Source: Candidatus Omnitrophota bacterium | GTDB taxonomy: Bacteria; Omnitrophota; Gorgyraeia; Gygaellales; Profunditerraquicolaceae | Assembly: GCA_028712255.1 (NCBI GenBank) | Contig: JAQTQJ010000004.1 | Span: 19,956 to 83,955 of the forward strand | Direction of reading: 5' to 3' | Length of the DNA stretch: 64,000 nt | In this document: positions 9,029 through 50,569 of the stretch, one piece after another | How positions within the stretch are numbered: the first letter of the stretch is position 1 | Layout of the letters: each line of letters begins with the position of its first letter | The notes under the pieces: model-generated | The model's input: only the letters and a program-made list of their open reading frames with translations | Told to the model about the DNA's origin: nothing | The model's database searches: none | Position numbers and translations under genes: made by a program

Positions 9029-9112
9029 GTCATTCTGAGCCCGCCATTGATTCAGTGGCGACCGAAGAATCAAAAATGAGATTCTTCGGTCGCTTCGCTC
9101 CCTCAGAATGAC
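9029..9112. repeat. Palindromic intergenic element family A, copy 1 (gtcattctgag ... ctcagaatgac with nested gaccgaagaatc/gattcttcggtc)
   Basis: Inverted repeat seen directly; lies inside the operon between the HD gene stop and hcp start. Confidence 0.8.
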
Positions 9113-9131
9113 GTATTCATGGTTTCTCTCT

Positions 9132-9836
9132 TTATAAATACACCTTTTTAGCTATCTCTCTTGCGGTTTTCGTTTTAAAATTATTATTGATAATTTTCTC
9201 TAATTTATTCCTTTCCTTGATCTCGCTTAAATTCACCAATAAATCCGCATCAAGGATTAAGTTAAAATTCAAAGAATCAATTTTCCCGGGGGAATGATGA
9301 TACCTGATAATCTGGCAGATCTCTTCAATTTCATCTTTTTTAAACCCAAGCTTTAGCAGAATTTTTCTTGCTGCAAGCGGGCCCTCTTTTTCCTGCAAAT
9401 GCCCAGAATTTAAACCGTATTTCTGTTCGGCTATTTTAATTCCTACATCATGTAAGATTGCGCAAGGAACAACAATATTCCAATCCCCGCCTTCTTTGCG
9501 TAAAAGTTCTTCAGCATAATCGAGGACTTTTCTTGCATGATTTATCCGTTTTATATCAGTACCGAAATATTCCCTTAATTCTTCAAGTAATCTTTCTTTT
9601 AATAAAACTGACCTATTTTTCACATAATTACCATACACCTCTGCTCCGATACATTCCTTAGCAGACTTACACCAATCAACACAAGTAGGTAAAACCTCCC
9701 GGTATAGAATCTGACGACACTTAGGGCAATTTGCCTTAATTTCATCAGAAAATATTTCCGCCTCATATCCACAAAAGGAGCAAATAATAGGCTCTGGCGT
9801 TATCTTTCGTTTATCCTGCCCCGGACAGTTATTCAT
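9132..9836 (-). CDS. HD-domain phosphohydrolase with N-terminal zinc-ribbon
   Basis: CxxC...CxxC N-terminal ribbon, ILHDVG HD motif, RYHH; 234 aa. Confidence 0.6.
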   Translation of the reverse strand: MNNCPGQDKRKITPEPIICSFCGYEAEIFSDEIKANCPKCRQILYREVLPTCVDWCKSAKECIGAEVYGNYVKNRSVLLKERLLEELREYFGTDIKRINHARKVLDYAEELLRKEGGDWNIVVPCAILHDVGIKIAEQKYGLNSGHLQEKEGPLAARKILLKLGFKKDEIEEICQIIRYHHSPGKIDSLNFNLILDADLLVNLSEIKERNKLEKIINNNFKTKTAREIAKKVYL

Positions 9837-10453
9837 TTTATCTTTTCACCTTTAATACTAATGATAACCTTTTCAAATGGAATATCTTTCCCAGATAACC
9901 CAATAGCTTTTTCAATAACTGGTAACAACCCAAAACAACAAGGTACCTCCATATAAACGTAAGTTACGGACTTAATATTGTTCTGTGTAAATATCTGTTC
10001 TAATTTTTCTTGGTATAAAGATACATCATCAAGCTTGGGGCAACCTATCAATAAAATCTTACCTTTTAATAAATCCTCATGGAAGTTAGCATACGCAAAC
10101 GATACACAGTCAGCAGCAATCAAAATGTCTGCACCGTTAAAATACGGAGCATTTGTAGGCACAAGGCACAGCTGTATCGGCCATTGTTTCAAACCCAGTA
10201 AACCTGAGCTTAGTTTACCAATATTAACCCTAGCTTTATTCTCATTATATTGAACAGCTTCTCTTTCCTCGATACTAATTGCTCCTTGTGGACAATGGCC
10301 CAGGCAAGCACCCAGGCCGTCGCAGAACAAATCGCTGATTAGGCGCGCCTTATTATCGATAACCCTAATTGCCCCTTCCGGACAATTGGGTATGCACAGG
10401 CCGCATCCATTGCATTTGTTTTCATTAATTCTAATAATTTTCCTCTGCGCCAT
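9833..10453 (-). CDS. 4Fe-4S dicluster ferredoxin-domain protein
   Basis: CNGCGLCIPNCP and CDGLGACLGHCP motifs; 4-nt overlap with the HD gene. Confidence 0.65.
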   Translation of the reverse strand: MAQRKIIRINENKCNGCGLCIPNCPEGAIRVIDNKARLISDLFCDGLGACLGHCPQGAISIEEREAVQYNENKARVNIGKLSSGLLGLKQWPIQLCLVPTNAPYFNGADILIAADCVSFAYANFHEDLLKGKILLIGCPKLDDVSLYQEKLEQIFTQNNIKSVTYVYMEVPCCFGLLPVIEKAIGLSGKDIPFEKVIISIKGEKIK

Positions 10454-10462
10454 ATATTCTTT

Positions 10463-10855
10463 CTAGATTAAAGAGGCCACTGTAATCTTTTGAAGCTGCC
10501 TAAAAATATTATCTTCGATAAGATGTAGCTTTTTTCTTAAAACGCATTTTGGCCTGTTCGGACAAACGTTTTTTTTCAAGAAGCATCCGTCCCGGCCCAT
10601 TTGCCCCTGAAAAATACGCATTATCTTAATTATATGTATTTTTTTACAAGCAACCTTAAGCTTAAATCCTCCCTTTTGGCCTTTACAAGATTCCAAGATA
10701 CCTTCTTTACTTAATTGCTGAAGGATCTTGCGCATAAACGGCCGTGGAACATTGAGTTTCTTAACAAGTTCATCTACGGATACAACATCCTGATGCTTTA
10801 ACATATAGCAAAGCGCACGTAGTGCATAATCTGTATTCCTGGTAATAAGTTTCAT
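10463..10855 (-). CDS. Rrf2-family transcriptional regulator (NsrR/IscR-like, Cys-containing)
   Basis: TDYALRAL HTH signature at the N-terminus, three C-terminal-half Cys; sits upstream of ferredoxin-HD-hcp. Confidence 0.8.
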   Translation of the reverse strand: MKLITRNTDYALRALCYMLKHQDVVSVDELVKKLNVPRPFMRKILQQLSKEGILESCKGQKGGFKLKVACKKIHIIKIMRIFQGQMGRDGCFLKKNVCPNRPKCVLRKKLHLIEDNIFRQLQKITVASLI

Positions 10856-11039: not shown

Positions 11040-11057
11040 GAAAAAAATTAGTCACCC

Positions 11058-11090
11058 GTCATTCTGAAGCCACGGAGTGGCTGAAGAATC
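11058..11090. repeat. Family A palindromic element, partial copy (gtcattctgaagccacggagtggctgaagaatc)
   Basis: Shares the gtcattctga arm and gaagaatc module; downstream of the transporter gene stop. Confidence 0.5.
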
Positions 11091-11098
11091 TTAACAAA

Positions 11099-12367
11099 TT
11101 ACTTCCAGATAAACCAGATAAATAAATAAGCAGCGGTTACGGCAGCCAACGTAAAAGGAATCCCTATTTTCATGAAATCGCCAAATTTAACCGGGTAGCC
11201 CTCTTTTTTAAGCAAGCTACAGGCAACGATGTTAGCTGATGCTCCGATTGGTGTAATATTACCGCCCAGGCTTGCGCCGATAAGCAAACCAAAAAGAAAT
11301 AATGCAGGATTAACTTGTAATTTGCTAGCCATGATTATAGCCACCGGCAACATAGCTACCAGAAATGGAACATTATCAATAAATGCCGATAATATTACCG
11401 AAAGAAATACTATTGCCGTATAGCCAAGGAATATATTTGAACCGACAAGGCCAGCTAAATAATTAGCAAGAATCTGAATCCATCCAGTAAGCGAAACCGC
11501 TCCTACGATAACAAAGATCCCTATAAGAAAAAATGTAGTATCCCAATCAAGCCCCTTGAGCCCGGATATAATTGAAGTTTTGTTTATAAACTTCTCCCAA
11601 ATCAAAGCAATAATTCCAAAAACCATACAAATTAAACCCGCCATATAATTAAAATCCGTATCAAAAAATGAGGACAGCGCTAAGAAAACAATTAGGCTTA
11701 CCAATAAAATAGTCGGCACCCAAGATCTTACTTTTTCAACTGCAATAAGTTGCGTTTTTTCATTGTGTTTTCTGAATATAAAATAAAGCACAAAAAACGA
11801 AACCAAAGCCCCCAGCTCTACGGCAAAGAATATACTCGGCCTGCCTTTGTAAAGAAAGAAATCGCCGAAATTCATCTTGGCAAAACCCCCAAGTAACATA
11901 CTCGGTGGATCCCCGATTAAAGTGGCTGTTCCCTGGAGATTGCTTGAGACAGCAATCGCAATCATCATCTGGGTAGGATTTATTTTGAGTTTTTTGGCTA
12001 AAGCCAAGGCAATAGGAGCAACAATCAACACTGTCGCTACATTTTCTACAAAAGCAGAGATAAAACCGGTTAAAAAACAGATAAATAAAATTGCCCAGGT
12101 AGTATTTTTAGCTTTATCAACAATTATCTCAGCCATATAAGCAGGAACCCTGCTTTGCATAAAAACATCAGCAATAATCAAGGTACCTACGAAGATACCC
12201 ATAACATTCCAGTTAATTGCCAATAAAGCATCCTTTGGCGATATGGCCTGAGTTAGAATAAGCAACAGGCCTCCTCCCAAAGCAACCAATGTACGTTTGT
12301 GAGGAAGCACCACAAACAATATGTAGGAGATAATAAAAATTGATACTGATACGATTTTTGGGTTCAT
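11099..12367 (-). CDS. ArsB/NhaD-superfamily anion/cation permease (paralog 1)
   Basis: About 11 TM; SLGGNITPIGASANIV signature; 422 aa. Confidence 0.6.
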   Translation of the reverse strand: MNPKIVSVSIFIISYILFVVLPHKRTLVALGGGLLLILTQAISPKDALLAINWNVMGIFVGTLIIADVFMQSRVPAYMAEIIVDKAKNTTWAILFICFLTGFISAFVENVATVLIVAPIALALAKKLKINPTQMMIAIAVSSNLQGTATLIGDPPSMLLGGFAKMNFGDFFLYKGRPSIFFAVELGALVSFFVLYFIFRKHNEKTQLIAVEKVRSWVPTILLVSLIVFLALSSFFDTDFNYMAGLICMVFGIIALIWEKFINKTSIISGLKGLDWDTTFFLIGIFVIVGAVSLTGWIQILANYLAGLVGSNIFLGYTAIVFLSVILSAFIDNVPFLVAMLPVAIIMASKLQVNPALFLFGLLIGASLGGNITPIGASANIVACSLLKKEGYPVKFGDFMKIGIPFTLAAVTAAYLFIWFIWK

Positions 12368-12375
12368 GTTTCTTT

Positions 12376-15615: not shown

Positions 15616-16482
15616 ATGATAATTTTTTCACTGAAGGAAGATAAGCGCCCAATCACTGAGATACCCAATACCGGATTTTTTATGCCAGGAGATAAAAATC
15701 TAAGTTTCCTAATTCATGGGCTTACCGGTACAGCCAAAGAGATGGGTTCAATTGCTCAATACCTGAATAAAAATGGATTTTCCGTTGCCGCTCCCCTAAT
15801 GGCTAATCATGATAAATCTATTTCTCTCCTTAAGCGGACTTCTTGGCAAGAGTTTTATGAATCCGTAAGAAATGAATTTATTAAATACGCTAACGACTAT
15901 GAAAATATATTTGTAGCCGGGTTATCTTTCGGCGCTTTAATTGGAATCATGCTGGCTCATGAATTCCCTAAAAAAGTAAAAGCATTAAACTGCTTTTCTC
16001 CCACGCTCTTTTTTGACGGATGGGGTAACCCTAAATCTAGGTTTCTCCTCCCTTTGGTTTATAAAACTCTCCTTAAATACTGGCTTTATTTTAAAGAAGA
16101 ATACCCCTATGGAATAAAAAATGAGCGCTTGAGAAAAAAAATAGAAAGTTTTTATAAAGATGCGAAATTATTTGATTACAGTAAAGTGCACCTCTACGGG
16201 TATCCCGTAATCCCGGTTGCCTGCATGTATCAGAATTACCTACTCTCAAAAAAAGTAATATCAATACTCAAAGAGATAACTTCACCTATCCAATTAATGC
16301 AAGCCAGGGATGACGATGTGACCAGCCCCAAAAACTCTTATTATATCCTCGACCACATAAGTTCACAGGAAAAAGAGATAATCTTCCTTGAAGATTCTTA
16401 CCATATTATTACCGCAGATCAGGAAAGAGATAAAGTTGCGGAGAAAACTTTAGCTTTTTTTGAAAAATATAAAAAATTATAA
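15616..16482 (+). CDS. Alpha/beta-fold hydrolase (esterase-like)
   Basis: HGLTG oxyanion region, GLSFGA nucleophile elbow (GxSxG); 288 aa. Confidence 0.6.
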   Translation: MIIFSLKEDKRPITEIPNTGFFMPGDKNLSFLIHGLTGTAKEMGSIAQYLNKNGFSVAAPLMANHDKSISLLKRTSWQEFYESVRNEFIKYANDYENIFVAGLSFGALIGIMLAHEFPKKVKALNCFSPTLFFDGWGNPKSRFLLPLVYKTLLKYWLYFKEEYPYGIKNERLRKKIESFYKDAKLFDYSKVHLYGYPVIPVACMYQNYLLSKKVISILKEITSPIQLMQARDDDVTSPKNSYYILDHISSQEKEIIFLEDSYHIITADQERDKVAEKTLAFFEKYKKL

Positions 16483-16504
16483 TAGTTCGGCTTTTGTAAT
16501 TTAC

Positions 16505-16557
16505 CGACGAAGCAAACTCTTAAAAGATTGCTTCGTCGCTTCGCTCCTCGCAATGAC
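16505..16557. repeat. Family A palindromic element, partial copy (inner gacgaagcaa/ttgcttcgtc hairpin plus right arm gcttcgctcctcgcaatgac)
   Basis: Between convergent genes; lacks the left outer arm. Confidence 0.7.
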
Positions 16558-16589
16558 ACAGCTACTTCTAAGAAATTAACTATTATAGC

Positions 16590-17519
16590 TTAAACAAGCA
16601 TCTCTTTAAGAATTACTAGATTAGTCTGTTCATTCACTGAGAGGATCAGATCAAGAGAACAGTTATCGGCGGTAAATCCTTTAGGGTGGTCTAATTGGGA
16701 GATAGCTGCTTTGATTCTATCGGAAATCTTAATAGGAGAATAATCACCTACCACATCTAAACCAATTATATCCAAATTCTGACGCATCAGCTTAAGTATA
16801 GTTAGAAGTTGATCTAAATGTAAAAATCCTTCCTCCCAATTAGTAAGCGCATACTCTTTCCTAAGAGAATCTTTATCAATTGAAATATAAACTTTCTTTG
16901 TGGGAAGGCTTTTGATTAACTTCAAGGTAAAATCGGTTAAATCTTCTTTTTCCAGTTCCCGCCAGGAGATTTCATTGAAAAAGAGGCTTTTAGTGATGGT
17001 AATCGAATGGTTTTGCGGAAGGCGCCTTAAATAAACGCGGCTTGGGGTTTGCCTGTAAGGATAAATCTCCAAACGATTACCAACCAAAGCGCCAAGATTT
17101 GCCGTCTGCAATGCTGGAAAAGACAGATCAGAAGAACCTGCGCCGATAAGTATACATTTAGAAATATTTTTATTTTTTAACGCAGTAGCTATCCATGAAC
17201 CACAGGCAAAATGCGGCGGTAAAATATCCCAGTCCGGATGAAAATCAAAGACAATCAAAGAAAAAGGCTCGTTAATCTGGCTAGTTAATACCTCACTGAT
17301 ATGATGAAAATCGCCTGAGCCTAAAAAGGTAGGATATTTTTTTTCTGCTGGGTCAAGGAAATTAAAAATTTCCTTGCGTAAATCTTTTGACATATAAAGT
17401 CTGGCAGAAGAAGCCAGGCTGCTAAAATCAATAATCCCTGCAGGACAATAGCTGAGGAGTTTGGATTGGCTAATAATGCTGTTATCGAAATTCAAAACGC
17501 GGATGCGTTTATCCAGCAT
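16590..17519 (-). CDS. Arginase/deacetylase-fold (ureohydrolase superfamily) protein, divergent
   Basis: SGDFHHIS, DFHPD, SIDKDS and DVVGDY motifs in the order of the arginase-family metal ligands; 309 aa. Confidence 0.45.
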   Translation of the reverse strand: MLDKRIRVLNFDNSIISQSKLLSYCPAGIIDFSSLASSARLYMSKDLRKEIFNFLDPAEKKYPTFLGSGDFHHISEVLTSQINEPFSLIVFDFHPDWDILPPHFACGSWIATALKNKNISKCILIGAGSSDLSFPALQTANLGALVGNRLEIYPYRQTPSRVYLRRLPQNHSITITKSLFFNEISWRELEKEDLTDFTLKLIKSLPTKKVYISIDKDSLRKEYALTNWEEGFLHLDQLLTILKLMRQNLDIIGLDVVGDYSPIKISDRIKAAISQLDHPKGFTADNCSLDLILSVNEQTNLVILKEMLV

Positions 17520-17565
17520 GGTAGTATTTTTGTCAACAATTCAGTTACCAAAAGCTTCCTTTGGT

Positions 17566-17651
17566 GTCATTGCGAGTCCACCATTAATTTAGTGGCGGAC
17601 GAAGCAATCTTGCATTAGATTGCCGCGTCGCCTTCGGCTCCTCGCAATGAC
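17566..17651. repeat. Family A palindromic element, full copy (gtcattgcgag ... ccaccattaatttagtggcggacgaagcaatc ... ctcgcaatgac)
   Basis: Nested inverted repeats seen directly. Confidence 0.8.
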
Positions 17652-17685
17652 ACAAATATTTACAATAGCTTAACCATTACGATTC

Positions 17686-19766: not shown

Positions 19767-19892
19767 ATAAAGAGTTGTAAAAATATACCCCTATTGTCTC
19801 ATAGGGGTAGCTGTAAGCCTAATCAAGTTCTATTCTTTATTTTAAACCTAGCATCGTAAGCTGTCAATACAATCTTTATGGGAAATTGGTAG

Positions 19893-19940
19893 AAAACCAG
19901 GGGACGGTTCTCTTAAGAAAGAGAACCGTCCCCTGGTTTT
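19893..19940. terminator. Intrinsic terminator hairpin, family B (aaaaccaggggacggttctctt-aaga-aagagaaccgtcccctggtttt), bidirectional T-tracts
   Basis: Perfect 22-bp stem abutting the radical-SAM stop codon. Confidence 0.8.
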
Positions 19941-22442: not shown

Positions 22443-22488
22443 GTTTATTTTTAATATATTACCGATTAGCTACAGTGTCAAGAAGAAT

Positions 22489-28893: not shown

Positions 28894-28955
28894 ACTCGTC
28901 GACAACTTTCAAACGCTGAATTGTTAATCTTTTATACATTTTCATTTCAAATCAC

Positions 28956-42600: not shown

Positions 42601-45600
42601 GCATAAGTTGTAATTCTTCTGGTTTCATACCTGAAACATTCCCTAAAATCCATGCGCTGAGTTTCTCCAAATTTTCTGCCCGGAAAAACACAGCGTTATA
42701 TTTTGACAAAAGCCTCTGGAAGAAAACAAAACGCTCAAGTTGTGTCATGGAATAAAAACGGTTCATCCAATCATCAACGCGTTGAACATCCGTAATAGCG
42801 CTAACATCAACGTCGTCTCTCTGTTGCGCTTCTGCCCGAATCTTAGTAATCGTCTCCATGATTACCGATGCAAGATAATCATCATCTCCTGTTACCATTG
42901 CCTTCATAAAATCCATCGCCTGTTTTTCACCAATCTTCATCTCCTCAAGTGTTTTATCCAATGCCATAAAACCACCCAGCATCACTTTTCCATCAAGGCT
43001 ATTGCCCTTCTCGTAAACACTCACTAATTGTTGATATTGTTGATATTCGGCATCCGTATCCACGCGCTCCTGGCGGAAATAATACAACGCATCAAAATTT
43101 CCATATCCTAACTCATTTGATACAAACGTGTAGGCATCGGAAAATTTCCCTTCCTTGATTATGCGGTGGCGCAGATTCGTCAGAAGCTCACGTTTCTGCC
43201 TTCCCGGAGGAGAATAACGCTCAATAAAATAATACGCTTCTTCCAAATCTTTCCAAGAACTCACTGACAATGACGCTGCGTAAAGTTGCAAGCTTACTAA
43301 TTTTGCTTCAATTACAGGGTGAAGAAAATTAAGTTCATCTGAATCCTTGCCATAATAATTAATTAATACTTCCTGTCCAAGAAACCGGCTACGGCCTCCA
43401 ATAGCAGAAATAGATCCTTGATTTTTTATCTTTCTTGCCGATATCTCTGCATTAGACAATGCAAATGATGCATGGATACTATCGGTAAGCGCCTGCAATT
43501 GTTGAATCGATAATAAACTAAGCTTATTTATCAGTGTTGCTTGCGCAGCTTCTGCATCAAAATCGGTAAGCGCTGCATTGGCGAGTGAATTATCATTAAC
43601 CGCATCGGCATAAATAAACTGTCTTGCTTTTCGGACAGTAGTATATTCTAATCTTTTCTTTTTTGCTTGCCCGCTGACAGATTGCGCAATCGCAGCAAGC
43701 TCTTCACGTTGCGGGTTTTGCTCCCATAACAGGTAATATTTTTGGTCCATTTGACGCAAAATAACCTCATAATCTTCTTCATTAACCTTTGATTCTTCCC
43801 TGCTCTTACTTTCTACGCAAAGAATATCTCTTCGAATAGCGCTCTCAATAAAAAATGCTTCGCTCAATGATGCCTTCTGATATGCAATAAACTCGCTACT
43901 TACTAAGAACTGTTCCATCGCCTCCCGGTAGAACACGGCATAAGCCTGAGCTTGTGCTCTATCTGTACTCATCCGGCTAATGCCTTCTACGCTAATTGGC
44001 AACCATAATCGCCCGTCCTTATCTTGAAAATGATTTGCTGTGAATTTTTGTATATACATTCGCAAGAATCCAACTCTATCCCCTTGAGCCATATATTCAT
44101 AAAGCCCTATCTGCTTTCCATACTCCGGTAATTTTGCTTGCTGCAATACCCGGTTAGTCGCTTCCATTCTGAGCCCATAACTTAACGGGTTTACGCTTGA
44201 AAATATATCAAATAGCGACGAACTAAGCCATAAAGTTAGATCCACATACGTCATACGGCCAAACCTGTTATGAATTTCTTCTCCAAGTTCGGTGTCATTT
44301 GGTTGGCGATTAGAATAGTCTTTGGCTTCTTGCAAATCCTGAGTATTACGAATCCATTCGGCGGTAAAGGTAACTAATTGTCCCAATTTCTTCTTCTGTG
44401 CTTCTGATAACCGGCTTGAGAATTGCTCGTAAGAATCAAAATCCTTACGGAGCGCTGCTTCTTCATTAAAAATGTCATGCCACAATGACCCTACAAAATA
44501 CCATTGATGCGGATTTTCGCTCCCAACCAGTCTCTGTTTTCGTATATCCTCATTGGCCCTCTTTGGATAATAAACAAAAGAAGGATCAAGGATATTCTTT
44601 TCAACATACTTCTTGCTTGAAATATACTGCTCGAGAAATATTCTATATGTTTCAAAGTCTTTTTCAGAATCAAAAGAATTTATTAAATTTGAATAAAACA
44701 CGGAGAAATAATACTGCCGAAGCTGCCTTAAATAATCAGAAAGCCATATCCGTGAGCCACCAAACGCAGGATTGGAAATCTTCCCGCTTGCATTAAATGC
44801 TAGTGTAATCGCAGTAATCCTCTTGCCAAAACCATCAAGGCTCAACAGTGAGCCATCAAAAGTAAAGAAATTGTAGACCTCTTGCCACTCCTGAACATTA
44901 GGAGATTCTGTTTGGATATTTAGTAATCGCATAAAGTAATCTCCCAGATAGGGGGCCATATCGTAGCCATCAGGATTATCATTGCGAGAGGAAAGCAGTG
45001 ACAAGGCCAAATATCGAACTACCTCATCTGTACTCTCGGCTGGAAGGCCATCCGCGCATGCAGTATTCTCTTTCAAGAGATACTGGCTGATATATACAAG
45101 TTTCTGCCAACTAAGATAGTAAGATGCCGCATTAAACGGTTGCCTCTGTTGTGTTCCGATAAATTCTTCGATGATGAATTTATATTGCTCTTGCGAAGAT
45201 AGTGTTTTTTGGGTCAACTCCCCCCAAGTATCTTTAAAATCCTGAAATGAAGATTGTTTTAAGTACGTTAAATAATCAAGGACAATAAAATACCCTTCCG
45301 GAGATTTCCAGTACCCCTCTAACGGATGAAAGGCGTTAACATGCGTCAAATCCTGTCCCTGTAAATTCATGCGCAGAAGCGTCGTTCGATCAAATTGACT
45401 TCCATGCGTCCAGTCAGAGCTCCCCTTCACAAAGCTTTCCAGCTTGTTAGATAAATAAATAACCGCGAGTTGATTAAATCCAATACCGTTGATTAACGAA
45501 GGAGAAACTGCATCCGCCTTATATTCCCCAAGACGTTTATCTAAAGGGGTACCGACGTTATTCCAGGTTAAATAATTATCCTGATAATGTGACAATTCAT

Positions 45601-47419
45601 GCGCGAGCACCGCGGCAATTTCATCAGAAAAATCCAGGCCATCAAGTAATTTTTGCGTAATCACCACAGAGCCGTCAGGAAGGCAATACGCATTGACTAC
45701 CGGCTCAAGAGATATGTATACTTTTATATCCGTACGTAGCTGTTTGTGCCCTGCCCGATCGTTGAGCCTAGTGGTAATCTTGGTAATCGTATCCGATAAA
45801 AACGCATACTGTTTGCTGTTGGCATCTGCGCCAGGATCCAAAATTCCGTAGCGCTCGTTTACTAAACCCAAAAACTTTTGGAATTCTTGTTCATCTCGTA
45901 GGACAGTAGGATCACTTACTGTAAAATGGTAATCCTTCGGCAAAATTGCGTATGTTTGCGCAACTTTATCATATTGTTTCTTAACGGCATCGAATACTGG
46001 TATCGATGATAGGGGATTTTGTGATGATGAAGCATTCTTCTTAATTGACTTAACGGCATTTGAAATACCTGCCTGAAACTTCTGGAGTAATGATTGAGCT
46101 TGTTTTGTTGGTCCTGGTTGGGGAATATTCTCAAGATTAGGGGATGGTTCTATTCCTTTGGCCTCAGCAGCAGCCACGCTTGGGGCACTCTCCCCTACAC
46201 CTGCTACTACGTCTATCTCTGAACCTCGAACATTCACTTCGGCTAGATCAGAATTGCTTACACTGGGATCACCGACAGTGGGAGCTATAGTAGTTATTGT
46301 TCCTGCCGGGTTAACAGAAGTGGCTTGTCCAAAAGCAGGAATTACCTGGCCGATGGCAAAGCCTCCTGAAAAGTAACTCCTGATACTCTGGCCAAAAGGG
46401 GTACTGATGGGTTCTTGAATGTTGTATTGGCCTTTAGCAAAGTTCTCCTTGTAGGCATTGAAATAGGTAGCTACGGAGTAGGGGATTTGGATTTTAAGGT
46501 TAGTGAGATCTTTAGAATCAATAGTTGGGTAGGGTAGGTTTAAACCTGCCCTACCACCTTGAGTTGTTGGGGACAGTCCCCTATGCCTGGCTTTGAACCA
46601 TTGGGCAAGAATTAGTGAGTAGTAGACCTGTCTTAGGGGAGCATAACGCTTGGCATTGTTGATTTCTTTGGTTAACCTGGGAATAATATCCTCTCTTATG
46701 ATTTGAGCGGAGTAGGCGTTGAGCTGCCTTTCTCTTACGTCTTTGAAAGAGTAGACAACATTATCTTTTAGATAGTCTTGCTCAAGCATTACTTTAAGGG
46801 TTGCCTTGTAGATATAGGCTGAATCTACTGATTCACGGATAATGATCTCATCCGGGACGATCCAGGGGCGGGTTAGCGTGGGAATGGTTACGTTCTGGGT
46901 GCCATAGAGCTCTTGGGCGCGTGTATAGAGTTTATCCCAGTACTCTTTGCCTTGAGGAGTAGAAGGATTAGTGGCATCAGCAGTGTCTTTTTTAAGCTGG
47001 AGGTCTGCTTCCAGGAGGATCTTGCCTATTTGAGTTTGAGCTAGGAGTGGATCAATGATATCATCGGGTAAATCAGGGCGAAGGTTAACCCAAAAGGTGC
47101 CATTGGGTAGAGCGATACCTGTAAAGAAGTAGTTGAGCAGGTCTTTGGTAGTTGATTCAAGTCCAGGGGTCCTCTTATCCTTAAACTGGTCTCCTTTGTC
47201 TAAAAGAAGTTTAAAGTTGTTGTTTAGGCTATCATAAGAGATAGATCTTAGGTGTAGGGGACGGAATTTATCGGGAGATAGAGCATTGTGCAGGGAATTA
47301 AGAGTGCCGGCGATATTTAACTCTGCATTGGCTACTTGGGCAAAGCCGGTTTGTTGCAATAAAAGAGATACGCACAGCAGAATAGAAAGAATCTTAAAGG
47401 TTTTGGATTTTTTCATCAT
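30635..47419 (-). CDS. Giant secreted multidomain protein (5594 aa, single ORF): signal peptide, M48-like HExxH peptidase, UbiB/ABC1-like kinase, GHKL ATPase module(s), TPR-like repeats, beta-rich region, second HExxH motif
   Basis: Uninterrupted 16,785-nt minus-strand reading frame; individual motifs located by residue counting and verified against the DNA (HELSH at 45587..45601, EIAQNSRDA at 33869..33895, HELGH at 32285..32299). Confidence 0.9.
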   Translation of the reverse strand: MMKKSKTFKILSILLCVSLLLQQTGFAQVANAELNIAGTLNSLHNALSPDKFRPLHLRSISYDSLNNNFKLLLDKGDQFKDKRTPGLESTTKDLLNYFFTGIALPNGTFWVNLRPDLPDDIIDPLLAQTQIGKILLEADLQLKKDTADATNPSTPQGKEYWDKLYTRAQELYGTQNVTIPTLTRPWIVPDEIIIRESVDSAYIYKATLKVMLEQDYLKDNVVYSFKDVRERQLNAYSAQIIREDIIPRLTKEINNAKRYAPLRQVYYSLILAQWFKARHRGLSPTTQGGRAGLNLPYPTIDSKDLTNLKIQIPYSVATYFNAYKENFAKGQYNIQEPISTPFGQSIRSYFSGGFAIGQVIPAFGQATSVNPAGTITTIAPTVGDPSVSNSDLAEVNVRGSEIDVVAGVGESAPSVAAAEAKGIEPSPNLENIPQPGPTKQAQSLLQKFQAGISNAVKSIKKNASSSQNPLSSIPVFDAVKKQYDKVAQTYAILPKDYHFTVSDPTVLRDEQEFQKFLGLVNERYGILDPGADANSKQYAFLSDTITKITTRLNDRAGHKQLRTDIKVYISLEPVVNAYCLPDGSVVITQKLLDGLDFSDEIAAVLAHELSHYQDNYLTWNNVGTPLDKRLGEYKADAVSPSLINGIGFNQLAVIYLSNKLESFVKGSSDWTHGSQFDRTTLLRMNLQGQDLTHVNAFHPLEGYWKSPEGYFIVLDYLTYLKQSSFQDFKDTWGELTQKTLSSQEQYKFIIEEFIGTQQRQPFNAASYYLSWQKLVYISQYLLKENTACADGLPAESTDEVVRYLALSLLSSRNDNPDGYDMAPYLGDYFMRLLNIQTESPNVQEWQEVYNFFTFDGSLLSLDGFGKRITAITLAFNASGKISNPAFGGSRIWLSDYLRQLRQYYFSVFYSNLINSFDSEKDFETYRIFLEQYISSKKYVEKNILDPSFVYYPKRANEDIRKQRLVGSENPHQWYFVGSLWHDIFNEEAALRKDFDSYEQFSSRLSEAQKKKLGQLVTFTAEWIRNTQDLQEAKDYSNRQPNDTELGEEIHNRFGRMTYVDLTLWLSSSLFDIFSSVNPLSYGLRMEATNRVLQQAKLPEYGKQIGLYEYMAQGDRVGFLRMYIQKFTANHFQDKDGRLWLPISVEGISRMSTDRAQAQAYAVFYREAMEQFLVSSEFIAYQKASLSEAFFIESAIRRDILCVESKSREESKVNEEDYEVILRQMDQKYYLLWEQNPQREELAAIAQSVSGQAKKKRLEYTTVRKARQFIYADAVNDNSLANAALTDFDAEAAQATLINKLSLLSIQQLQALTDSIHASFALSNAEISARKIKNQGSISAIGGRSRFLGQEVLINYYGKDSDELNFLHPVIEAKLVSLQLYAASLSVSSWKDLEEAYYFIERYSPPGRQKRELLTNLRHRIIKEGKFSDAYTFVSNELGYGNFDALYYFRQERVDTDAEYQQYQQLVSVYEKGNSLDGKVMLGGFMALDKTLEEMKIGEKQAMDFMKAMVTGDDDYLASVIMETITKIRAEAQQRDDVDVSAITDVQRVDDWMNRFYSMTQLERFVFFQRLLSKYNAVFFRAENLEKLSAWILGNVSGMKPEELQLMQNILVAFLANVDNSELTLFLSKVLAEHALVGDPAYTHRAAVMSWFTQPADPFVRDSRLQRWLPAYERFQNEIYRPTQNLLSLEELQKSYGRSSYDRKRWKEHGYDRQLKEHKQYQKYKKYVTQEYGKTAEQFFAFLKDNPSYIPDTEIEAVYAVFNPGESMINPQLLKFQAKEREYYRQENAVFQFKTTVGKTKALSIRLGKFIATAGQAIGALGVRFLQVFGQYYAIPQEYKEEFSNVYDNASTLVKSNLFQSLAVEIERMQTVRDGAWIKSAAYAEWSKRLMEAGQTIPLTEYLKQFRAEAINFLGFRFNLNDSPLQDYDQRVFLSLFAQNLRDKKLTEYNERTASMFEEVFTETLASFKAFYTAQVEAMEYLKIHLRIEKVLGGGSINTAYLVSVTQPDGSVARQVVKIISPNLEVLLGERAEQMQKTVKDLIAKDPKNERQYIMAERLLGTLRLWVKDDINDGFFLSDDAIFSSAVFYPAAGSITTSRVLQPYGYRIKVEEYAPGDTLKKILNGGDQVVPAQTDKKGRVSDSKLKAALADFARDYLTHLLTPVADSYSGETIYMAHSDFHIGNLMLNKRPDGSYEKIVIDRNYYLKLLPVDIDLITRLSMAWKFNFMGKVDALINYLLQVNPDKTDQDKVRQEIRSVILKKIFSWSTVIDLIQGKDVSSSVANLLMAEFEKRGYDTPLRIRLFFKNVSAINNLLQYVDGSDLFDAIKKYISTTNKGQVLKVAQVTPAPQLATSTSRAATGSKSVVIGSGPAQFFYDRFGQIDLGKMVVEWAQSIRWPWNKARATIQLQPSIDLVDLNRFIWAQYRLAERNIPRELLPDILKLLKLNTALTGEAAYKAIYEGFGSNGYAKEVVDLIIGDTYPVEGVRLDVEIVDQNKNARIQSICEAVSNGLDAHGFRIGQFSKGVKQIIDWLGPSAEDKIEIFTRKENSKAYHLTLTRDAQGARYIQIKEISAQEYQDLAQEYAGQIIEHGTIVKVSTVEAIPRLDSQRDETHRNSQGAIADAIHQRFPFVGEVDIYTQMSGQREPVKINGFENKRVVVPVRSKAHAPEESQGRFVKVITSEHAITIVDNGSGMDAEVLAKMFVPKEGTKRPASLELNIDRELGKVKVVHDEALPHRVSFARNGEVIIAVDIPGEIMDSATVTGGLMLELGGLLDVSESRDNIIMGLNLGGKIPSFQQGVEYAIKQIVKHPKLTTREKIKYINTIMVGLDGLINSNANSSHLVKGIRANVQEVISGLIQELRHQGVIVLPQQKEFGKLELGGKDVLFVHGKLFDWQLSSFLNAIGGEIIPYVTLGGASHLPLIIAPFTQEATKRFFKFDRLWHTWAKEERLPVIKTESFVIIPQELGRRLLELSRKRSGGLTAQEEKEYSSLLQRVNIITAEEVVTSYEHAKPKDNLAVTAIPEVKEVSGAIDSGAINKFLREPPVMSMQKGVKEAGAQAKEPADLDLVKVVSGIAQALPDDYSRCRAYAVLARGLAKTGRIDEAKEALNKAHHFYRVEKDASDRNADGCDALIATALAEAEIGQEDLAFVTLRKAYLEAQNVFENDNRSRSWLMVRAVKAFVMVMDKSAGVIMGTTERLGLFEEVIDFTGHIPDPSAKARAIASITEALAGAARLQGSAGTYALFAKLVNMIKGMSHNDLRENISTIIEALIASDITIQEVFTLLKEIKGTVEKLDNKERILAIIAKAFSRLERQREAGKLFEDILINVEKFPNSWSKGTELLDITNALVESKLPEEEVYALLQRAQRIAEKLTDPEDKAEALAIVAAAYFKMIRIADAENVFKKALSITIKISDVTRKGQVFDSILKSFVGTDKFLVRPEKLQEIFDIVIKQLDLGSVLERLLFLSHEVKGLIENGDIKEAGRLCNSILEVLGQFNTDSVVRKSIYPGLLFNIAQGLAQIGEVDESLKITRKIPEDEVRMKCEALVSVAEAFAKGNRIAEAKAILKEILELINNNNVLVLENYYAAIEVLAEVEKVESTEAEPLAHPQVQPAALFSETKPADAPNSIIITPQPGGGFSLINREDKNRAAPFAYVRVQRIGSTDAFIVYESNDSFYIYKGDQQLFDGRPIIGTTYSVVAIKGNLVVIEKIDMLPLGTPNKKHYIVLDTASGVEQSESSEVFLSASGRFSVHKQGNNILTYSDYNTAPNRVPQIITHDSLGFRVDDKADVVILQDKQGKYSLFSLGQGRFLIQGADHIEIDSSGEVAIFKAGNKLDYLWLNEKEEKKDEMFISMRAKHRDLEEGGKIRVTSDGGKTYLLIVNKDGRLKECDVFSRASGYAAPGIFIHRNIFKVIEAGPSTDPISRRYWEEYDLEKKTIWDEETNGIPESYKTHWGEVMASIGFEYNRGTPIEPLGSILLQGNNLIFRNFSHYEGSFYLPTGDHDVCILNLDSGLLTDIKQIQPSDRVVSLEGGKVWYLLNAERGFEVVYAITDKSRPVASLFFEHQFFIEQNNNFILVATHDGRILLVNNFGEIKGVTKQVPQNFICADVNGEYFVFVNPQTQEIRYLDPRKVFVQAPQPAQVQAQAEEAQINAQEVMAKWRDNVFSQRDAFIARAQAAYQPFLDLIPEEFKHRSDFSLGEMIKELYLDQEDEINRRFRQALENNQPLNLEELPFDIFSRRMQQFLRVLPGFLQERKTQLSQERIEDQYDFYFDLFFSLICISKERELNIEHLEIDNQLFEALAYGWGTYQEKIDILPVIIKFIAALKEATPGEVKRLTSIINFLSGVSLQAANHADGAHILANQINRLLALKPEARDKYLSDLYSAFELFDDANERRSFQLKDAHKLGKARPFVVFLTNNVEQLREKERTEPEGVDEFNARGPEEAVALSQIIKLEQQRPKNGLADKVMSVEQLVRSIFNLPQSSAKLESDILLNATVQRESGAYTAEIAQNSRDATRGKHGELLVDFYLQQNSQGQEEYVEEARDNGTGALEEVALLIPKSTKAAAGQIELTGFFGTGKYTLFEGVDRLEIITKNSQRAYMFVFAVIRDSSGRPTAVKLTRIRKITDPKVAQGVTVRRIKSLDNTIPELDQMLSQRSWKIFVGLAQDEHFKVFFIDHEGKKQQLAVEKDILAEVEFKAVRPQEKDETNFGPLRIISAKDMPLQIVDKAGLRVSEMKEEYLALIPSVLRRHIQELGIIIQIPLPLIRNRSAFEHENEFLPQIQRYVAVAFFQAIAYKALSQSSPQFVFEGFPLDWETNDSYWQSINPASDRWILGVANDINVGRIERISEEALRGLLTEPGKLDKEKKFTKLILLLEVFSNRQNSDSKVSLLTRRLAIQEETNKAILGAAKLQRELLMSGGFNLGRLPSLSDIPFSGNKVMQALGIALGHDQMQRPERYILNPNDYNDNERELVTLAWGIARNFGIEQIILLNDEVRFAGAFKIYQGKHTMFLARSIASEIGRAATNSTAIDSATDTIVHELGHLLEEFMRQDNAGRFWQEGYIAHLSDFTHDAVGTFAEAMKYAAAVSLNNGDGSVSLEMDSGETEPSPSSLNPTSPDTGINLASGTMPNGLNNTISQGDGSVEIQVYINNGEIYYEVRKNKELVKTIRGDDPKKAFKEAKQVAAEALAGSNEATEPSHITSEERDKTLRRYADTQRSIDKDDEENLGLPNGLELIISGESPEIIRFKEEIFSMLAEVGFDRNNPEHLEILSQEYAKTLKEYIEGMRQGVRTAKYFGLDAKTSFSPDEIKDAWRDITKLIVDKIKMKMKAEALRKVFPRASKEIFREWDSYGDMLGKLLIDDTQEGIFAFYEKAGRPPVPIAWAMISKDVEGRVTRVLSALDINRSQKGYKSLKASILADLKEYLENEIAKPKTTGPINGSTSSSSNSAFAPGGIDSSTTLTIDSRQGEKLGGIDFRFLPIVIQSIDSLKAGIRSLPQSTLQGINLTQEWSDIERLVNSGITPSAERLKEYLAASCFKGSLDQDTNRIVSCIADILRMEEESCCLTDPTLKDILVVLGSGRSGEELRIAFNK
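32088..32140. repeat. 19-bp perfect inverted repeat inside the giant ORF (ggggacggttctgtttctc ... gagaaacagaaccgtcccc), in frame, encoding GDGSVSLEMDSGETEPSP
   Basis: Seen directly; same GGGGACGGTTCT core as the family B terminator hairpins. Confidence 0.85.
32240..32512 (-). other. Giant protein: second HExxH zincin-like motif (TIVHELGHLLEEF, aa ~5040)
   Basis: HELGH verified in the DNA at 32285..32299; surrounding fold unassigned (DUF4157-like possibility). Confidence 0.3.
33560..33952 (-). other. Giant protein: Hsp90/MORC/sacsin-like GHKL ATPase module 2 (aa ~4490-4620)
   Basis: N-box EIAQNSRDA (ExxxNxxDA), G1-box ARDNGTGA (DxGxG) 35 aa later, G2-box GFFGTGKYTLF 28 aa later; order and spacing canonical for the Bergerat fold. 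Confidence 0.6.
35000..36472 (-). other. Giant protein: beta-strand-rich region, possible beta-propeller (aa ~3650-4140)
   Basis: Recurrent short hydrophobic strands with G/D/N turns (ILVATHDGRILLVNNFGEI, YLLIVNKDGRL); composition-based. Confidence 0.25.
36620..38182 (-). other. Giant protein: TPR/HEAT-like alpha-helical repeat region (aa ~3080-3600)
   Basis: Repeated amphipathic helix pairs with A/L/E/K-rich patterning (RIDEAKEALNKA, RIAEAKAILKEI); composition-based. Confidence 0.35.
39260..39922 (-). other. Giant protein: tentative GHKL-like ATPase module 1 (aa ~2500-2720)
   Basis: N-box-like CEAVSNGLDAH and a strong G1-box AITIVDNGSGMDAEVLAKMF, but the spacing (~180 aa) is atypical. Confidence 0.3.
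40640..41542 (-). other. Giant protein: UbiB/ABC1-like atypical kinase module (aa ~1960-2260)
   Basis: GGGSINTAYLVSV (ASIAQVH-like), ARQVVKIISP (VAVKVQRP-like), HSDFHIGNLM (HADPHPGN-like catalytic motif), VIDRNYY. Confidence 0.5.
45320..45802 (-). other. Giant protein: M48-family zinc metallopeptidase-like module (aa ~540-700)
   Basis: VYISLEPVVNAYCLPDGSVVITQKLLDGLDFSDEIAAVLAHELSHY matches the M48 (HtpX/Ste24/BepA) core around HExxH. Confidence 0.65.
47324..47419 (-). other. Giant protein: Sec signal peptide (aa 1-32, MMKKSKTFKILSILLCVSLLLQQTGFAQVANA|E)
   Basis: Basic N-region, hydrophobic core, AxA cleavage motif. Confidence 0.7.
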
Positions 47420-47516
47420 TTTGCCTACCGGTTTATTAACTTACTATAAGTATGCTATATAGGTAAGTAAAAACAAGGGTAAAATAAGGAAAAAAGAAAG
47501 GGTTTTCAGAATGATA

Positions 47517-47566
47517 AAAAGGGGACGTTTCCCTCTAAGGCTATAGGGAAACGTCCCCTTTTATTG
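47517..47566. terminator. Intrinsic terminator hairpin downstream of secA (aaaaggggacgtttccct-ctaaggctat-agggaaacgtcccctttt)
   Basis: Perfect 18-bp stem flanked by A/T tracts. Confidence 0.75.
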
Positions 47567-47572
47567 CAATGT

Positions 47573-50491
47573 TTATTTTCCGCAGCATTTTTTATATTTT
47601 TTACCCGAGCCGCACGGACAGGGGTCATTACGGCCTACCTTGGATTGGTGGGATTGCACAGGTTTAACAGCTTGCGCGGGCGCAACAGGTAGCTCCACAT
47701 CAGCATCGTCCCCAGCAGGAGCCTGGAATTTATTCGCCTCAGGATGAGTTAGTTCCTTGGGCAGAGAACTAAAAACCCCTTGGAATCTATCAGGCTTGAC
47801 TGGCTCTAATTTGAAAACAGTCTGCACAGCGTCCTCTTCGATAGCAGCAATCATCTGACTAAACATTCCAAAAGCTTCGCGCTTATATTCAATCAAAGGA
47901 TCCCTTTGCCCATAGGCGCGCAAACCAATACCTTCACGCAAGCTATCCATGGCATAAAGATGATCTTTCCATTTAGTATCGATAATCTGCAGGAAAACCA
48001 TACGTTCTAAATTACGCAATAACTCTGCGCCAATCAGTTTTTCTTTACCTTCATAAGCTAAAAGCATTTTTTGTGTTAAATCATCCTTTAACCCTTCTTT
48101 ATCTTGGTCAGTAAATGCCTTAGCGTCCGTCTCTAGGCCAAAATTTAAGGCCAAGGAATTGATTAAACCCGTTACATCTAAACCAGAGGAATCCCCGTGA
48201 TCATAAATTTTCAGATAATCATCAATCAATTTGGGAATAATTTCAATAATATTTTCTTTTAAAGAAAAACCTTCCAAAATCTGCTTACGCTGGCCGTAGA
48301 TAATTTCCCTTTGTTTATTCATTACATTATCATATTCCAGGAGCTGTTTTCGGATTTCAAAATTGTGCTGTTCTACCCGGCGCTGGGCAATCTCAATCGA
48401 ACCACTAACCCAGGGATGCTCAATAACCTGCCCTTCTTCCAGTCCCAATTTATCCATCAGCCCAATAATCCTGTCAGAGCCAAACAAACGCATAAGATCA
48501 TCCTTCAATGATACATAAAAACGTGATGAACCCGGATCCCCCTGCCTGCCGCTGCGGCCGCGCAGCTGATTATCGATACGCCTGGCTTCATGGCGCTCCG
48601 TGCCTAAAACATGCAAGCCGCCTAAGGCCACTACTTTATCATGTTCAAGGGCAGCTTCGGATTTATAACGATCAAGGATTGCTTTGTACTCAATCTGATA
48701 ATTTGGATCCTCCGGATTTAATTTCTGCTTGGCCACGTTTTTAGCGGTAAACTCAGGATTTCCACCTAAAAGTATATCTGTACCACGGCCAGCCATGTTG
48801 GTAGCAATAGTCACGCCTTTATATCTACCGGCCTGAGCAATAATAATCGCTTCCATTTCATGATATTTAGCATTTAATACCTGATGAGTAACCCCGCGGC
48901 GTTTAAGCATCTCAGAGAGCCTCTCGGATTTATCAATAGTGATTGTACCGACCAATACGGGCTTGCCCAAATTATACAATTCTACGATCTCTTCAACCAC
49001 AGCATCAAATTTCTCTTTTTCAGTTTTATAAATGCGATCAGGATAATTCTTACGCACTAAAAGTTTGTTTGTAGGCAGAACAACTACATCCAATTGATAA
49101 ATACTTTTAAATTCATTGGCTTCGGTAAAAGCAGTACCCGTCATCCCGGCTAGTTTCTCATACATGCGGAAATAATTTTGAAAAGTCACGGTGGCTAAGG
49201 TTTGATTTTCCCGCTCAATCTTTAATCCTTCTTTAGACTCGATTGCCTGATGCAGGCCGTCTGACCAGCGCCTGCCGGGCATAAGCCTGCCGGTAAATTC
49301 ATCGACGATTATCACCTGGCCATCCTTAATCACATAATCCACATCCCGCTCAAAGAACTCCTTTGCCCGCAGGGCCGCAATAGTATGATGACGATACTCA
49401 ATAGTTTCCAAAGCATGAAGGGTATCCACGCCCCAGAGCTTAGAGGCTTTAATCTCCCCTTCTTCAGTTAAAGCTACGGTCTGAGCTTTTTCATCGGCGA
49501 CATAATCAAATCCTTTTCCTAAGTCTATTCCTTTATATTTTGCGTCGATCTCGTCTCTTTCCGTAACCCTACGGCCATTTAATTGTTCAACTATTTTTTT
49601 AGCAGTATAATATTTTTCCGTGGACTCCTCGGCAGGGCCTGAGATAATCAACGGTGTACGCGCCTCATCGATTAATATTGAATCAACCTCATCCACTATG
49701 GCATAATAGAACGGCCGCTGCACCAGTTCTTCAATAGAATATTTCATATTATCGCGCAGATAATCAAAACCAAATTCATTGTTGGTGCCATAAGTTATAT
49801 CGCAGGCATAAGCAATTTTTCTTTCCTCATCGCTCATATCATGCTGGATAGTGCCTACGGACAGCCCTAAAAATTCATAGATCGGCCCCATCCACTCGCG
49901 GTCGCGCCGGGCAAGATAATCATTGACCGTAACCACATGCACTCCTTTACCCAATAAAGCATTAAGATAAGCTGCTAATGTAGCCACTAAAGTTTTACCT
50001 TCTCCGGTGGACATCTCGGCAATCCTACCTTCATGCAAAATAATACCTCCGGCAATCTGCACATCAAAATGGCGTAATCCTATCGTACGCTTAGCTGCCT
50101 CTCTGACTACGGCAAAAGCTTGCGGCAATATATCGGCAAAAATTCTATTGCGGCTAACCTTTAATTTTTCTTTTAACTTTTCTTTCTCTTCGGGTATAGC
50201 CACGCTAAGCATTGCCTGTTGTAAATCTTCAAGCTCCTGAGCAATCTCAACAGATCTATTTTTTAGATGCTCTTTAAATTCATTTGACTTAGCAGTAAGC
50301 TCTGCGTCGCTAAGCGCGCTTATCTTAGGTTCTAGAGAATTCACTATGTTAACAATTCTAGCCACCTCAACCATCTTGTTCATTGAAGGGCTAGGCATAT
50401 CAGAATGCAAAGTCATATTTAATTTAGGAAATCTGTTCCTAATAGCATTCTGTTTATTTTGAAGAATAATTTTTTTAATTAATCCTAACAT
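47573..50491 (-). CDS. secA: Preprotein translocase ATPase SecA
   Basis: MLGLIKK start, DEAD-like motor motifs, C-terminal zinc finger [14 protein letters not shown]; 972 aa. Confidence 0.9.
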
Positions 50492-50505
50492 TTTACTCCT
50501 AATTC

Positions 50506-50569
50506 GTCATCTTGAGCCCGAAGGGCGAAGGATCTAGATTCTTCGGTCGCTTCGCTCCCTCAGAATGAC
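50506..50569. repeat. Family A palindromic element (gtcatcttgagcccgaagggcgaaggatctagattcttcggtcgcttcgctccctcagaatgac)
   Basis: Between secA start and prfB stop. Confidence 0.8.

Follow-up and report, generated by a model that had tools for sequence, protein, structure and literature searches.

A superfamily of repetitive extragenic palindromes (REPs) recognised by the tag CGTC was defined by Di Nocera, De Gregorio and Rocco (2013, BMC Genomics 14:522; PMC3733652) and includes Neisseria dRS3, which is equated there with CGTC-1, as well as the Rickettsia palindromic elements RPE-4 and RPE-6. As set out in the accessible parts of that paper, the tag is CGTC with the variants TGTC and CCTC, the stems of 8-9 bp carry complementary A and T at positions 1 and 2 and enclose a loop of 4-5 nt, and the short, unpaired, C-rich tail has the consensus CCA. 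Dimers with their tags outside (head-to-head, HH) predominate in these repeats and tandem arrangements are rare; the repeats are reported from five phyla without a dedicated or flanking transposase, and, according to the authors, bulged repeats may have been missed in their survey (PMC3733652). Here we describe a family of short tagged hairpins in a 64,000-nucleotide stretch (hereafter the window) of the genome of a Candidatus Omnitrophota bacterium (NCBI GenBank assembly GCA_028712255.1, contig JAQTQJ010000004.1, positions 19,956 to 83,955 of the forward strand). Its members are probably mobile palindromes of the tagged-REP kind that do not move autonomously. They come nearest to the CGTC/TGTC-tagged superfamily and, judged by their sequence, are best accommodated as a bulged, modular variant of it. 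To our knowledge, no mobiliser of CGTC-type REPs has become known since their definition in 2013.

An initial annotation of the window had listed seven copies of a palindromic family built from outer arms, an inner hairpin and a gcttcgctcc linker. All seven positions hold the motifs described when the sequence is read directly, but side-by-side reading of the copies revealed that the repeated entity is smaller, namely a unit of 24-45 nt, and that the listed copies are mostly head-to-head dimers of this unit. What had been regarded as outer arms are the tags and stems (the 5' halves) of two head-to-head units, the inner hairpin is formed by their 3' halves, and the linker is the apical hairpin GGAGCGAAGC of the unit in minus orientation. 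A unit opens with the tag Y-GTC, which is followed by a 5-nt arm and GAG; next come a GC-rich apical hairpin, whose length varies, and (GAC/ACC)GA(A), and the unit closes with the complement of the arm and a C. In the window, to which our reading of units and genes in the source genome was confined, the tags are TGTC or CGTC and all 5-nt arms begin with AT (ATTGC, ATTCT, ATCCT, ATCTT). Altogether there are 13 units, 11 of them full units with GAG, one a fragment and one of simpler form, which are distributed over seven sites as four HH dimers, one decayed dimer, one single unit and one tandem pair (Table 1). The copy at 11058-11090, previously called partial, is a complete single unit, and the same is true for 30593-30635; the unit GTCATTCCCGCGAAAGCGGTAATC had been missed. 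A further revision concerns 16505-16557, also listed as partial, which is a decayed dimer whose homologue in a related genome (L368) retains both units. The GC content of the units (0.49-0.56) does exceed that of the window (about 0.40), though not by as much as had been stated.

The units stand out clearly from the background of the window. The pattern GTCATTSYGAG, with at most one mismatch allowed, matches 12 times where 1.8 matches are expected, and none of 100 shuffled sequences reached 12; the matches at 43264 and 44978, inside a giant open reading frame (ORF), are due to chance. A profile built exclusively from units of other genomes recovered the 11 window units with GAG and the fragment (16504-16515), and nothing else that was credible. 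The dimers fold with z scores between -5.6 and -7.8, and the dimer at 9029-9112, for example, folds as one long hairpin (z = -6.6).

Comparison with relatives provided evidence for the mobility of the elements. We retrieved six Omnitrophota relatives with conserved gene order (L243-L246, L367/L369 and L368), and at four of the seven window positions the orthologous site is empty in syntenic relatives. The stretches compared in these relatives, about 4-21 kb per locus, contained no units, whereas L368 and L369 each have units at one of the window sites. Units were seen in GCA_030647935.1, but none over 15-21 kb of the relatives GCA_002796135.1, GCA_041643255.1, GCA_028716245.1 and GCA_028715785.1. 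Because the orthologous sites are empty, the window copies at these four positions represent insertions. The spacer between the aminotransferase and the arginase-family gene, for instance, measures 166 nt in the window versus 9-24 nt in all six relatives, and the extra DNA consists of the dimer 17566-17651 and its AT-rich outer arms. The arginase-family and hydrolase genes overlap by 4 nt in five relatives (L243-L246, L367) whereas they are 107 nt apart in the window with the decayed element between them, and the genes lnt and PIG-L, which overlap in L244, are separated by about 190 nt in the window, including the element at 28790-28926. Downstream of CitMHS, L245 reads GGAGATAATTTTTTCTTGACA at the place where the window contains a 45-nt insert.

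At the 16.5-kb site, L368 harbors a homologous and complete dimer, which indicates that the window copy is old and that half a unit has since been lost from it. How the three closest relatives branch is ambiguous, as the two genes compared disagree, and the pattern at this site may stem from one precise loss or from gains in two lineages. In L369, the closest relative, whose release factor 2 is 96% identical, the site between prfB and secA is also filled, with the dimer placed at exactly the same nucleotides. Both apical hairpins and the linker differ between this dimer and that of the window, from which it follows that the interior of an element turns over faster than the flanking DNA. A third genome, L370, contains an unrelated hairpin, GGGGACAG...CTGTCCCC, in place of the dimer. 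Presence and absence at orthologous intergenic sites were also observed among related phage contigs. The elements are thus gained and lost at intergenic sites over species and genus divergence, in Omnitrophota as well as in phages. Two Desulfobaccales metagenome-assembled genomes (MAGs) differ in another way: at orthologous sites, one carries a full dimer (L198, 6939-7018) and the other only the GTCAT tag of the first unit plus the second unit (L229, 4249-4302), both inside an outer palindrome ACCTCTGCGAAA...TTTCRCAGAGGT, which suggests internal deletion as a route from a dimer to a "single" unit.

Inverted arms of about 28-33 nt, beginning with TAAYARTTMAG, enclose three of the window dimers (at 16.5, 17.6 and 28.8 kb) and form with them composite elements of about 108-146 bp. 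As the arms are missing from the empty sites of the relatives, they must have arrived together with the dimer. The ATTCT-type dimers starting at 9029 and 50506 lack such arms. A similar situation, with dimers of both CGTC and GTAG type nested in longer palindromes, is mentioned in the available text of Di Nocera et al. (PMC3733652).

Table 1. Positions of the palindromic elements and of features associated with them in the 64-kb window
Feature	Position	Strand	Description
Unit	9029-9071	+	ATTCT/AGAAT stem, long apical hairpin CGCCATTGATTCAGTGGCG; left half of dimer 9029-9112
Unit GTCATTCTGAGGGAGCGAAGCGACCGAAGAATC (exact 33-mer)	9080-9112	-	Right half of dimer 9029-9112
45-nt insertion holding single unit 11058-11090	11051-11095	+	Site empty in relative L245
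Decayed composite element	16479-16586 (boundaries approximate)	.	Between convergent hydrolase and arginase-family genes; outer arm, plus-unit fragment 16505-16517, linker, full minus unit 16526-16557, outer arm
Arginase-family gene	16590-17519		Protein 100% identical to PHC29_03040 (Candidatus Omnitrophica MAG)
Composite element	17534-17679	.	Spacer between aminotransferase and arginase-family genes; fold z = -5.6; outer arms 17534-17565 and 17652-17679 enclosing dimer 17566-17609(+) / 17618-17651(-)
Composite element	28790-28926	.	Between lnt and PIG-L gene; one long hairpin, fold z = -7.5; arm TAACAGTTCAGC... 28790-28817, inverted partner 28894-28926, dimer 28818-28850(+) / 28856-28893(-) inside
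Tag-derived ATG (reverse complement of GTCAT)	28820-28822	-	In frame with PIG-L lipoprotein signal MTRLFLRAELLHKIKLSIFLSFLLLSGC
Unit GTCATTCCCGCGAAAGCGGTAATC	30558-30581	+	Classical CGTC-1/dRS3-like form GTC-ATTCCCGC-GAAA-GCGGTAAT-C
Single unit in tandem pair 30558-30635	30593-30635	+	ATCCT/AGGAT stem, apical hairpin TCCGCCA...TGGCGGA; last base overlaps stop codon of 5594-aa ORF
Head-to-head heterodimer 50506-50534(+) / 50537-50569(-)	50506-50569	.	Spacer between prfB and secA

The properties of the family as a whole were derived from 504-621 units collected from about 240 loci. GTC is preceded by T in 71% and by C in 25% of the units (504 units, 240 loci), and GAG directly follows the stem in 464 of 621. 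Stem types include ATTGC, ATTCT, ATCCT, ATTCC and similar sequences, with a minority starting with AC. The first base of the tail is C, which was imposed by the detection rule in the 504-unit count and is invariant in an alignment of 66 units; it is followed by TC in 46% and by CA in 14%. Sequence conservation is strong in the 5' half of the unit, and unpaired positions are among those conserved, so that the similarity is not confined to GC-rich stems. When units were detected irrespective of arm complementarity and the search seeds were set aside, 118 of the resulting 161 units have exactly complementary 5-nt arms, representing 11 arm types, which indicates that the stem is maintained by compensatory change. 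Arm pairs were counted by our own tabulation because the MAFFT alignment of the units places a gap in the 3' stem. Most dimers have their tags outside (117 HH), with only 19 tags-in (tail-to-tail, TT) and 19 tandem (head-to-tail, HT) arrangements. Relative to the genes beside them, single units point either way about equally often (47:44), and units are found between divergent genes as well. Around 113 dimers, direct repeats of 2-8 nt at offsets of 0-3 were as frequent as in shuffled controls. Insertion of the elements thus leaves no target-site duplication, and they have no transposase as a neighbor.

The resemblance to the CGTC superfamily extends over most of these features. The unpaired YGTC tag matches CGTC/TGTC, the stems start with A-T and T-A pairs, the tail starts with C (a copy in Methylosinus has CCA), HH dimers dominate in the family and in the window, where four intact and one decayed were found, some of the dimers are nested in longer palindromes, and the repeats occur in several phyla with no associated transposase. 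The unit at 30558-30581 even has the canonical stem of 8 bp (with one mismatch) and a GAAA loop of 4 nt. The other units differ in that a 5-bp basal stem is followed by an internal loop (GAG/CGA(A)) and a variable apical hairpin, in contrast to the perfect 8-9-bp stem and 4-5-nt loop of the published repeats. They also differ in their range, as one 33-mer is shared by MAGs that bear the labels of about 12 phyla and phages contain related units, compared with five phyla for the repeats covered in the accessible parts of the 2013 paper. The sequences ATTGCGAG and ATTCTGAG are absent from the text and supplements of Di Nocera et al. (2013), as far as these are accessible, although one of the four families described there might still be the present one. 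A text search of 8 million papers for arm and unit sequences retrieved only unrelated primers and a Neisseria dRS3-like string.

Other known repeats are more distant. With the GTAG REPs, their bacterial interspersed mosaic elements (BIMEs) and REPINs, which are moved by REP-associated tyrosine transposases (RAYT or TnpA-REP) of the HUH type, the present family shares short tagged hairpins and inverted dimers folding into a larger hairpin, intergenic location, high copy number, absence of target-site duplication, and presence or absence between relatives. However, the tag here is YGTC followed by AT and not GT[AG]G, and no RAYT gene flanked by the present units was found in 242 loci. REPIN-RAYT systems are, according to the part of the report available, mostly vertically inherited and lineage-specific (10.1101/2022.05.22.493013), whereas the present sequence is common to many phyla. 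Bacterial miniature inverted-repeat transposable elements (MITEs) such as the Correia elements and the MITEs of Coxiella are similar in size (64-146 bp for the dimers and composites described here), in their terminal inverted repeats, in intergenic insertion and in their effects on neighboring ORFs, but the present elements show no regular target-site duplication, had no parent insertion sequence (IS) in the loci covered, and are built of 25-45-nt hairpin units that look autonomous. Integron attC sites and XerC/D-type sites were considered and rejected, as their cores do not match in sequence and the units are not arranged with cassettes.

Units of this family occur in many other genomes, in phages and on plasmids. 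The exact 33-mer GTCATTCTGAGGGAGCGAAGCGACCGAAGAATC, which is present twice in the window (9080-9112 and 50537-50569), was found in at least 120 stretches of species-representative genomes, with a chance expectation of about 1e-8 matches, and the pattern GTCATTGCGAG-N(6-30)-GAAGCAATC in at least 120 viral contigs, both counts being lower bounds. Among the matches listed for the 33-mer are MAGs labelled as Thermodesulfobacteriota/Desulfobaccales, Chloroflexota, Planctomycetota/Brocadiales, Omnitrophota, Patescibacteria (Kuenen-, Nealson- and Saccharibacteria), Fermentibacteria, Bacillota, Bacteroidota, Campylobacterota, Pseudomonadota, Gemmatimonadaceae and Gastranaerophilales, with a GC content of the loci between 36 and 62%; several of these matches are located on contigs of more than 100 kb. 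The commonest viral unit among the matches listed is the 26-mer GTCATTGCGAGCGNAGCGAAGCAATC, and phage units adjoin portal, major-head and tail genes. Plasmid pOB3b1 of Methylosinus trichosporium OB3b carries a dimer with a CGTC tag and the CCA tail referred to above, and related units are present on plasmids of other cultured hosts, i.e. Methylocystis rosea, a Halomonas species and the cyanobacterium Aulosira laxa. Neither PLSDB plasmids nor GenBank phages contain the exact 33-mer. A metagenome scan with the apical module CGCCAWTNNTTYAGTGGCG yielded at least 120 matches, of which the first 70 were inspected; 66 of these were chance matches and 4 lay inside units, and the module was not found in the other 246 loci. 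In an Anaerolineales MAG (L194, 3004-3234), three tandem 99-nt repeats, each containing the exact 33-mer, are located directly upstream of an Lnt-like frame (…FIVNISNDGWF…) and may represent an in-frame intragenic expansion.

We searched for an enzyme that could mobilise these units. There is no transposase among the genes of the window, and neither a parent element nor a transposase was found near about 340 unit blocks. Clustering of the ORFs within 400 nt of units returned only phage structural proteins and one transporter, but no candidate enzyme, and the 26 ORFs with units on both sides (240 loci) are heterogeneous, with no recurrent protein family. Over about 1.9 Mb of loci with units, no parent IS sharing the terminal inverted repeats of the elements came to light. 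A search for RAYT/HUH protein motifs in all ORFs of 242 loci detected a single RAYT-like gene (HFH...YIHLNP; L214, 647-1321), which belongs to a Nealsonbacteria MAG. The same locus contains TGTC-type units about 3-7 kb from this gene, and two REP systems thus seem to coexist there. In a Clostridia MAG (L144, 807-1097), a small protein of the GIY-YIG type, a nuclease fold, (MKNFYTYIITNDRRTTLYVGVTNNIARRMYEHK...) has units on both sides, which is a single case but makes this fold of interest as a possible mobiliser.

How could such elements move? The unit would form a hairpin with an unpaired 5' Y-GTC tag, a 5-bp basal stem, a purine loop in which GAG opposite CGA or CGAA might form tandem G.A pairs, an exchangeable apical hairpin (often GCGNAGC) and a C-tail. 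Tags-out dimers could fold into one long hairpin, and in this genome some travel inside the larger palindrome with arms of about 28-33 nt. Most likely, the folded single strand would be recognised via tag, basal stem and GAG loop by a trans-acting enzyme, which would cut and join single-stranded DNA in analogy to the tyrosine transposases of the HUH type by which GTAG REPs are moved. That the recognition module hardly varies from phylum to phylum would then reflect enzyme specificity combined with horizontal spread, possibly via phages. More tentatively still, Y-GTC-AT...GAG / CGA(A)...AT-C might serve as the site at which a trans-acting system for mobilising single-stranded DNA recognises its substrate, a system that about a dozen phyla would have in common or pass on horizontally and that phages would carry or exploit; we regard this possibility as rather doubtful at present. 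If it were true, these units would be among the most widely distributed near-identical mobile sequences in prokaryotes, and they would offer a direct handle on the propagation of "orphan" CGTC-type REPs, including Neisseria dRS3 and the Rickettsia RPEs.

The initial annotation had proposed a REP/MITE-like element or, alternatively, a dedicated RNA-structure module. REP-like character is supported by the dispersal of the units beyond the window, by the insertions relative to empty orthologous sites and by the conserved unpaired positions. In a rival explanation, the dimers or composites would be classical MITEs, i.e. deletion derivatives of an IS that are moved in a cut-and-paste manner by a DDE transposase recognising TGTCAT...ATGACA with its TG...CA ends. 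About 70% of the dimers indeed have the termini T-GTCAT...ATGAC-A, three window copies possess outer inverted arms that came in with the dimer, and a direct repeat surrounds one single-unit insertion. Yet the lack of direct repeats above control around the 113 dimers at any offset and of a parent element or transposase near the unit blocks speaks against this explanation, as does the fact that single units of 25-45 nt insert alone too and that the orientation rules of the units agree with those of REP families; we therefore consider classical MITEs improbable. An origin as RNA modules, such as terminators, RNase targets, mRNA stabilisers or protein-binding hairpins kept by selection on the transcript and not by transposition, appears similarly unlikely to us. 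It would suit the location of the window copies, which are all intergenic and mostly between co-directional genes, the long hairpins formed by the dimers, the position of phage units between structural genes, and also the dimer in the HD-hcp spacer, which on the coding (minus) strand ends 7 nt before the Shine-Dalgarno sequence of hcp. On the other hand, direct reading identified no T-run on either flank of any window copy, whereas a separate palindrome family of the window (GGGGACGGTTCTC) does have T-runs; single units are without orientation preference, close relatives contain the same operons without units, Rfam gave no match at gathering score and none on the elements up to E = 1, and a generic hairpin would not require identical unpaired bases across phyla.

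It is also conceivable, albeit very improbable in our view, that the units act as duplex DNA, either as binding sites of nucleoid proteins, gyrase or integration host factor (IHF)-type proteins, as proposed for E. coli BIMEs, or as recombination targets like Neisseria dRS3 in the integration of filamentous prophages. The dRS3-like form of the unit at 30558-30581, together with the equation of dRS3 with CGTC-1 in the accessible part of the 2013 paper (PMC3733652), and the strong conservation of the 5' half would be in agreement with this. However, compensatory changes keep the stem paired over 11 arm types, and because of this covariation a folded single strand is favored over a fixed duplex; in addition, neither the window nor the other loci have an integrase or a prophage in association with units.

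Several observations weigh against our interpretation of the units as mobile tagged REPs that are recognised as folded single strands. The search revealed no mobilising enzyme, the sole RAYT-like gene is bordered on both sides by a different, unrelated palindrome (CCCCACGTACACCCCCGGGGTGTACGTGGGG) and not by these units, and the single-stranded-DNA/HUH step is an analogy. The single-unit insertion at 11051-11095 is bracketed by the 6-bp direct repeat AAATTA (TAATTT; 11045-11050 and 11096-11101, the latter containing the CitMHS stop codon), which would suit a DDE transposase. The sites scored as empty could in principle be the result of precise deletions and not ancestral states, and the phylum labels of the 33-mer derive from MAG bins, in which contamination is possible. 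Moreover, only 8 single mismatches occur in 220 units, so that the stems are too conserved to tell which strand folds; wobble asymmetry (G.T versus A.C) was for this reason dropped as an indicator of the folding strand. Finally, short units of 26-32 nt are no stabler than shuffled sequence in nearest-neighbor folding (z = -0.2 and +1.0). Standard energy models give no credit to the proposed tandem G.A pairs (both in pyrimidine-GA-purine context) and to the GCGNAGC/GNA mini-hairpin, which would be expected to stabilise the units from what holds for DNA mini-hairpins in general.

The elements in the window have housekeeping genes as neighbors, among them hcp, an HD-domain gene, Rrf2, CitMHS, a class-III aminotransferase, lnt, a PIG-L deacetylase, a 5594-aa ORF, secA, prfB, uvrC, murJ and others. 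Side effects on the host would comprise large hairpins inside operon transcripts, spurious ORF extensions and the loss and replacement of a start codon, and irrespective of their origin the hairpins must still affect the transcripts that contain them. The first ATG of the annotated hcp ORF is the reverse complement of GTCAT in the tag, and the real start of the protein (MFCYQCEQT), which is preceded by AGGAGG, is found 8 codons downstream; the N-terminal extension of this ORF is thus a translation of the tag, as had been recognised before. For the PIG-L gene, the element had been suggested to supply the start codon. In relatives, the protein begins with MHTKRLLIFLLFLFLSGC, and in the window TTA, with which the outer arm ends, occupies the position that aligns with its ATG. 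Going upstream from this lost ATG, the first canonical start in frame is the tag-derived ATG at 28822-28820 on the minus strand, which yields a plausible lipoprotein signal. From this we infer that the insertion removed the native ATG and that the ATG of the tag is used as a replacement start, in agreement with the earlier suggestion.

What the present data add to the knowledge of CGTC-type repeats is a bulged, modular variant whose recent insertions are seen through empty sites in relatives and in phages, insertion free of duplication, a 33-nt unit that is identical in MAGs carrying the labels of about 12 phyla, and the occurrence of its relatives on plasmids from methanotrophs in culture and from a cyanobacterium. 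In combination, these findings make the question of the mobiliser testable. For genome annotation, the units explain spurious N-terminal extensions such as that of hcp, and probably they also generate many of the short "hypothetical proteins" in MAGs. The insertion at PIG-L would represent a case in which a mobile hairpin has apparently replaced the start codon of a gene.

A few further features of the window were noted. The 5594-aa ORF occupies 30635-47419 on the minus strand in a single reading frame. The ORF at 50586-51569 (minus strand) encodes release factor 2 (prfB) and not release factor 1; the source records list 365 aa for this protein versus 327 aa for the ORF, which fits the usual programmed +1 frameshift upstream. 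A perfect tandem repeat of the 7-mer AGCTTAT with about 8 copies is located at 27331-27385 at the 3' end of the PIG-L gene (the ORF ends at 27383), and a near-perfect palindrome of 30 nt (97% complementary, 5-nt loop) lies at 63328-63392 between a response-regulator gene and the next ORF. The second, unrelated palindrome family, GGGGACGGTTCTC...GAGAACCGTCCCC with GGGACCGTTTC variants, is represented at 19886-19947, 22486-22525, 60947-61040 and 62850-62917; with the T-runs that follow them, these palindromes look like intrinsic terminators, and the hairpin found between prfB and secA in L370 is similar to them.

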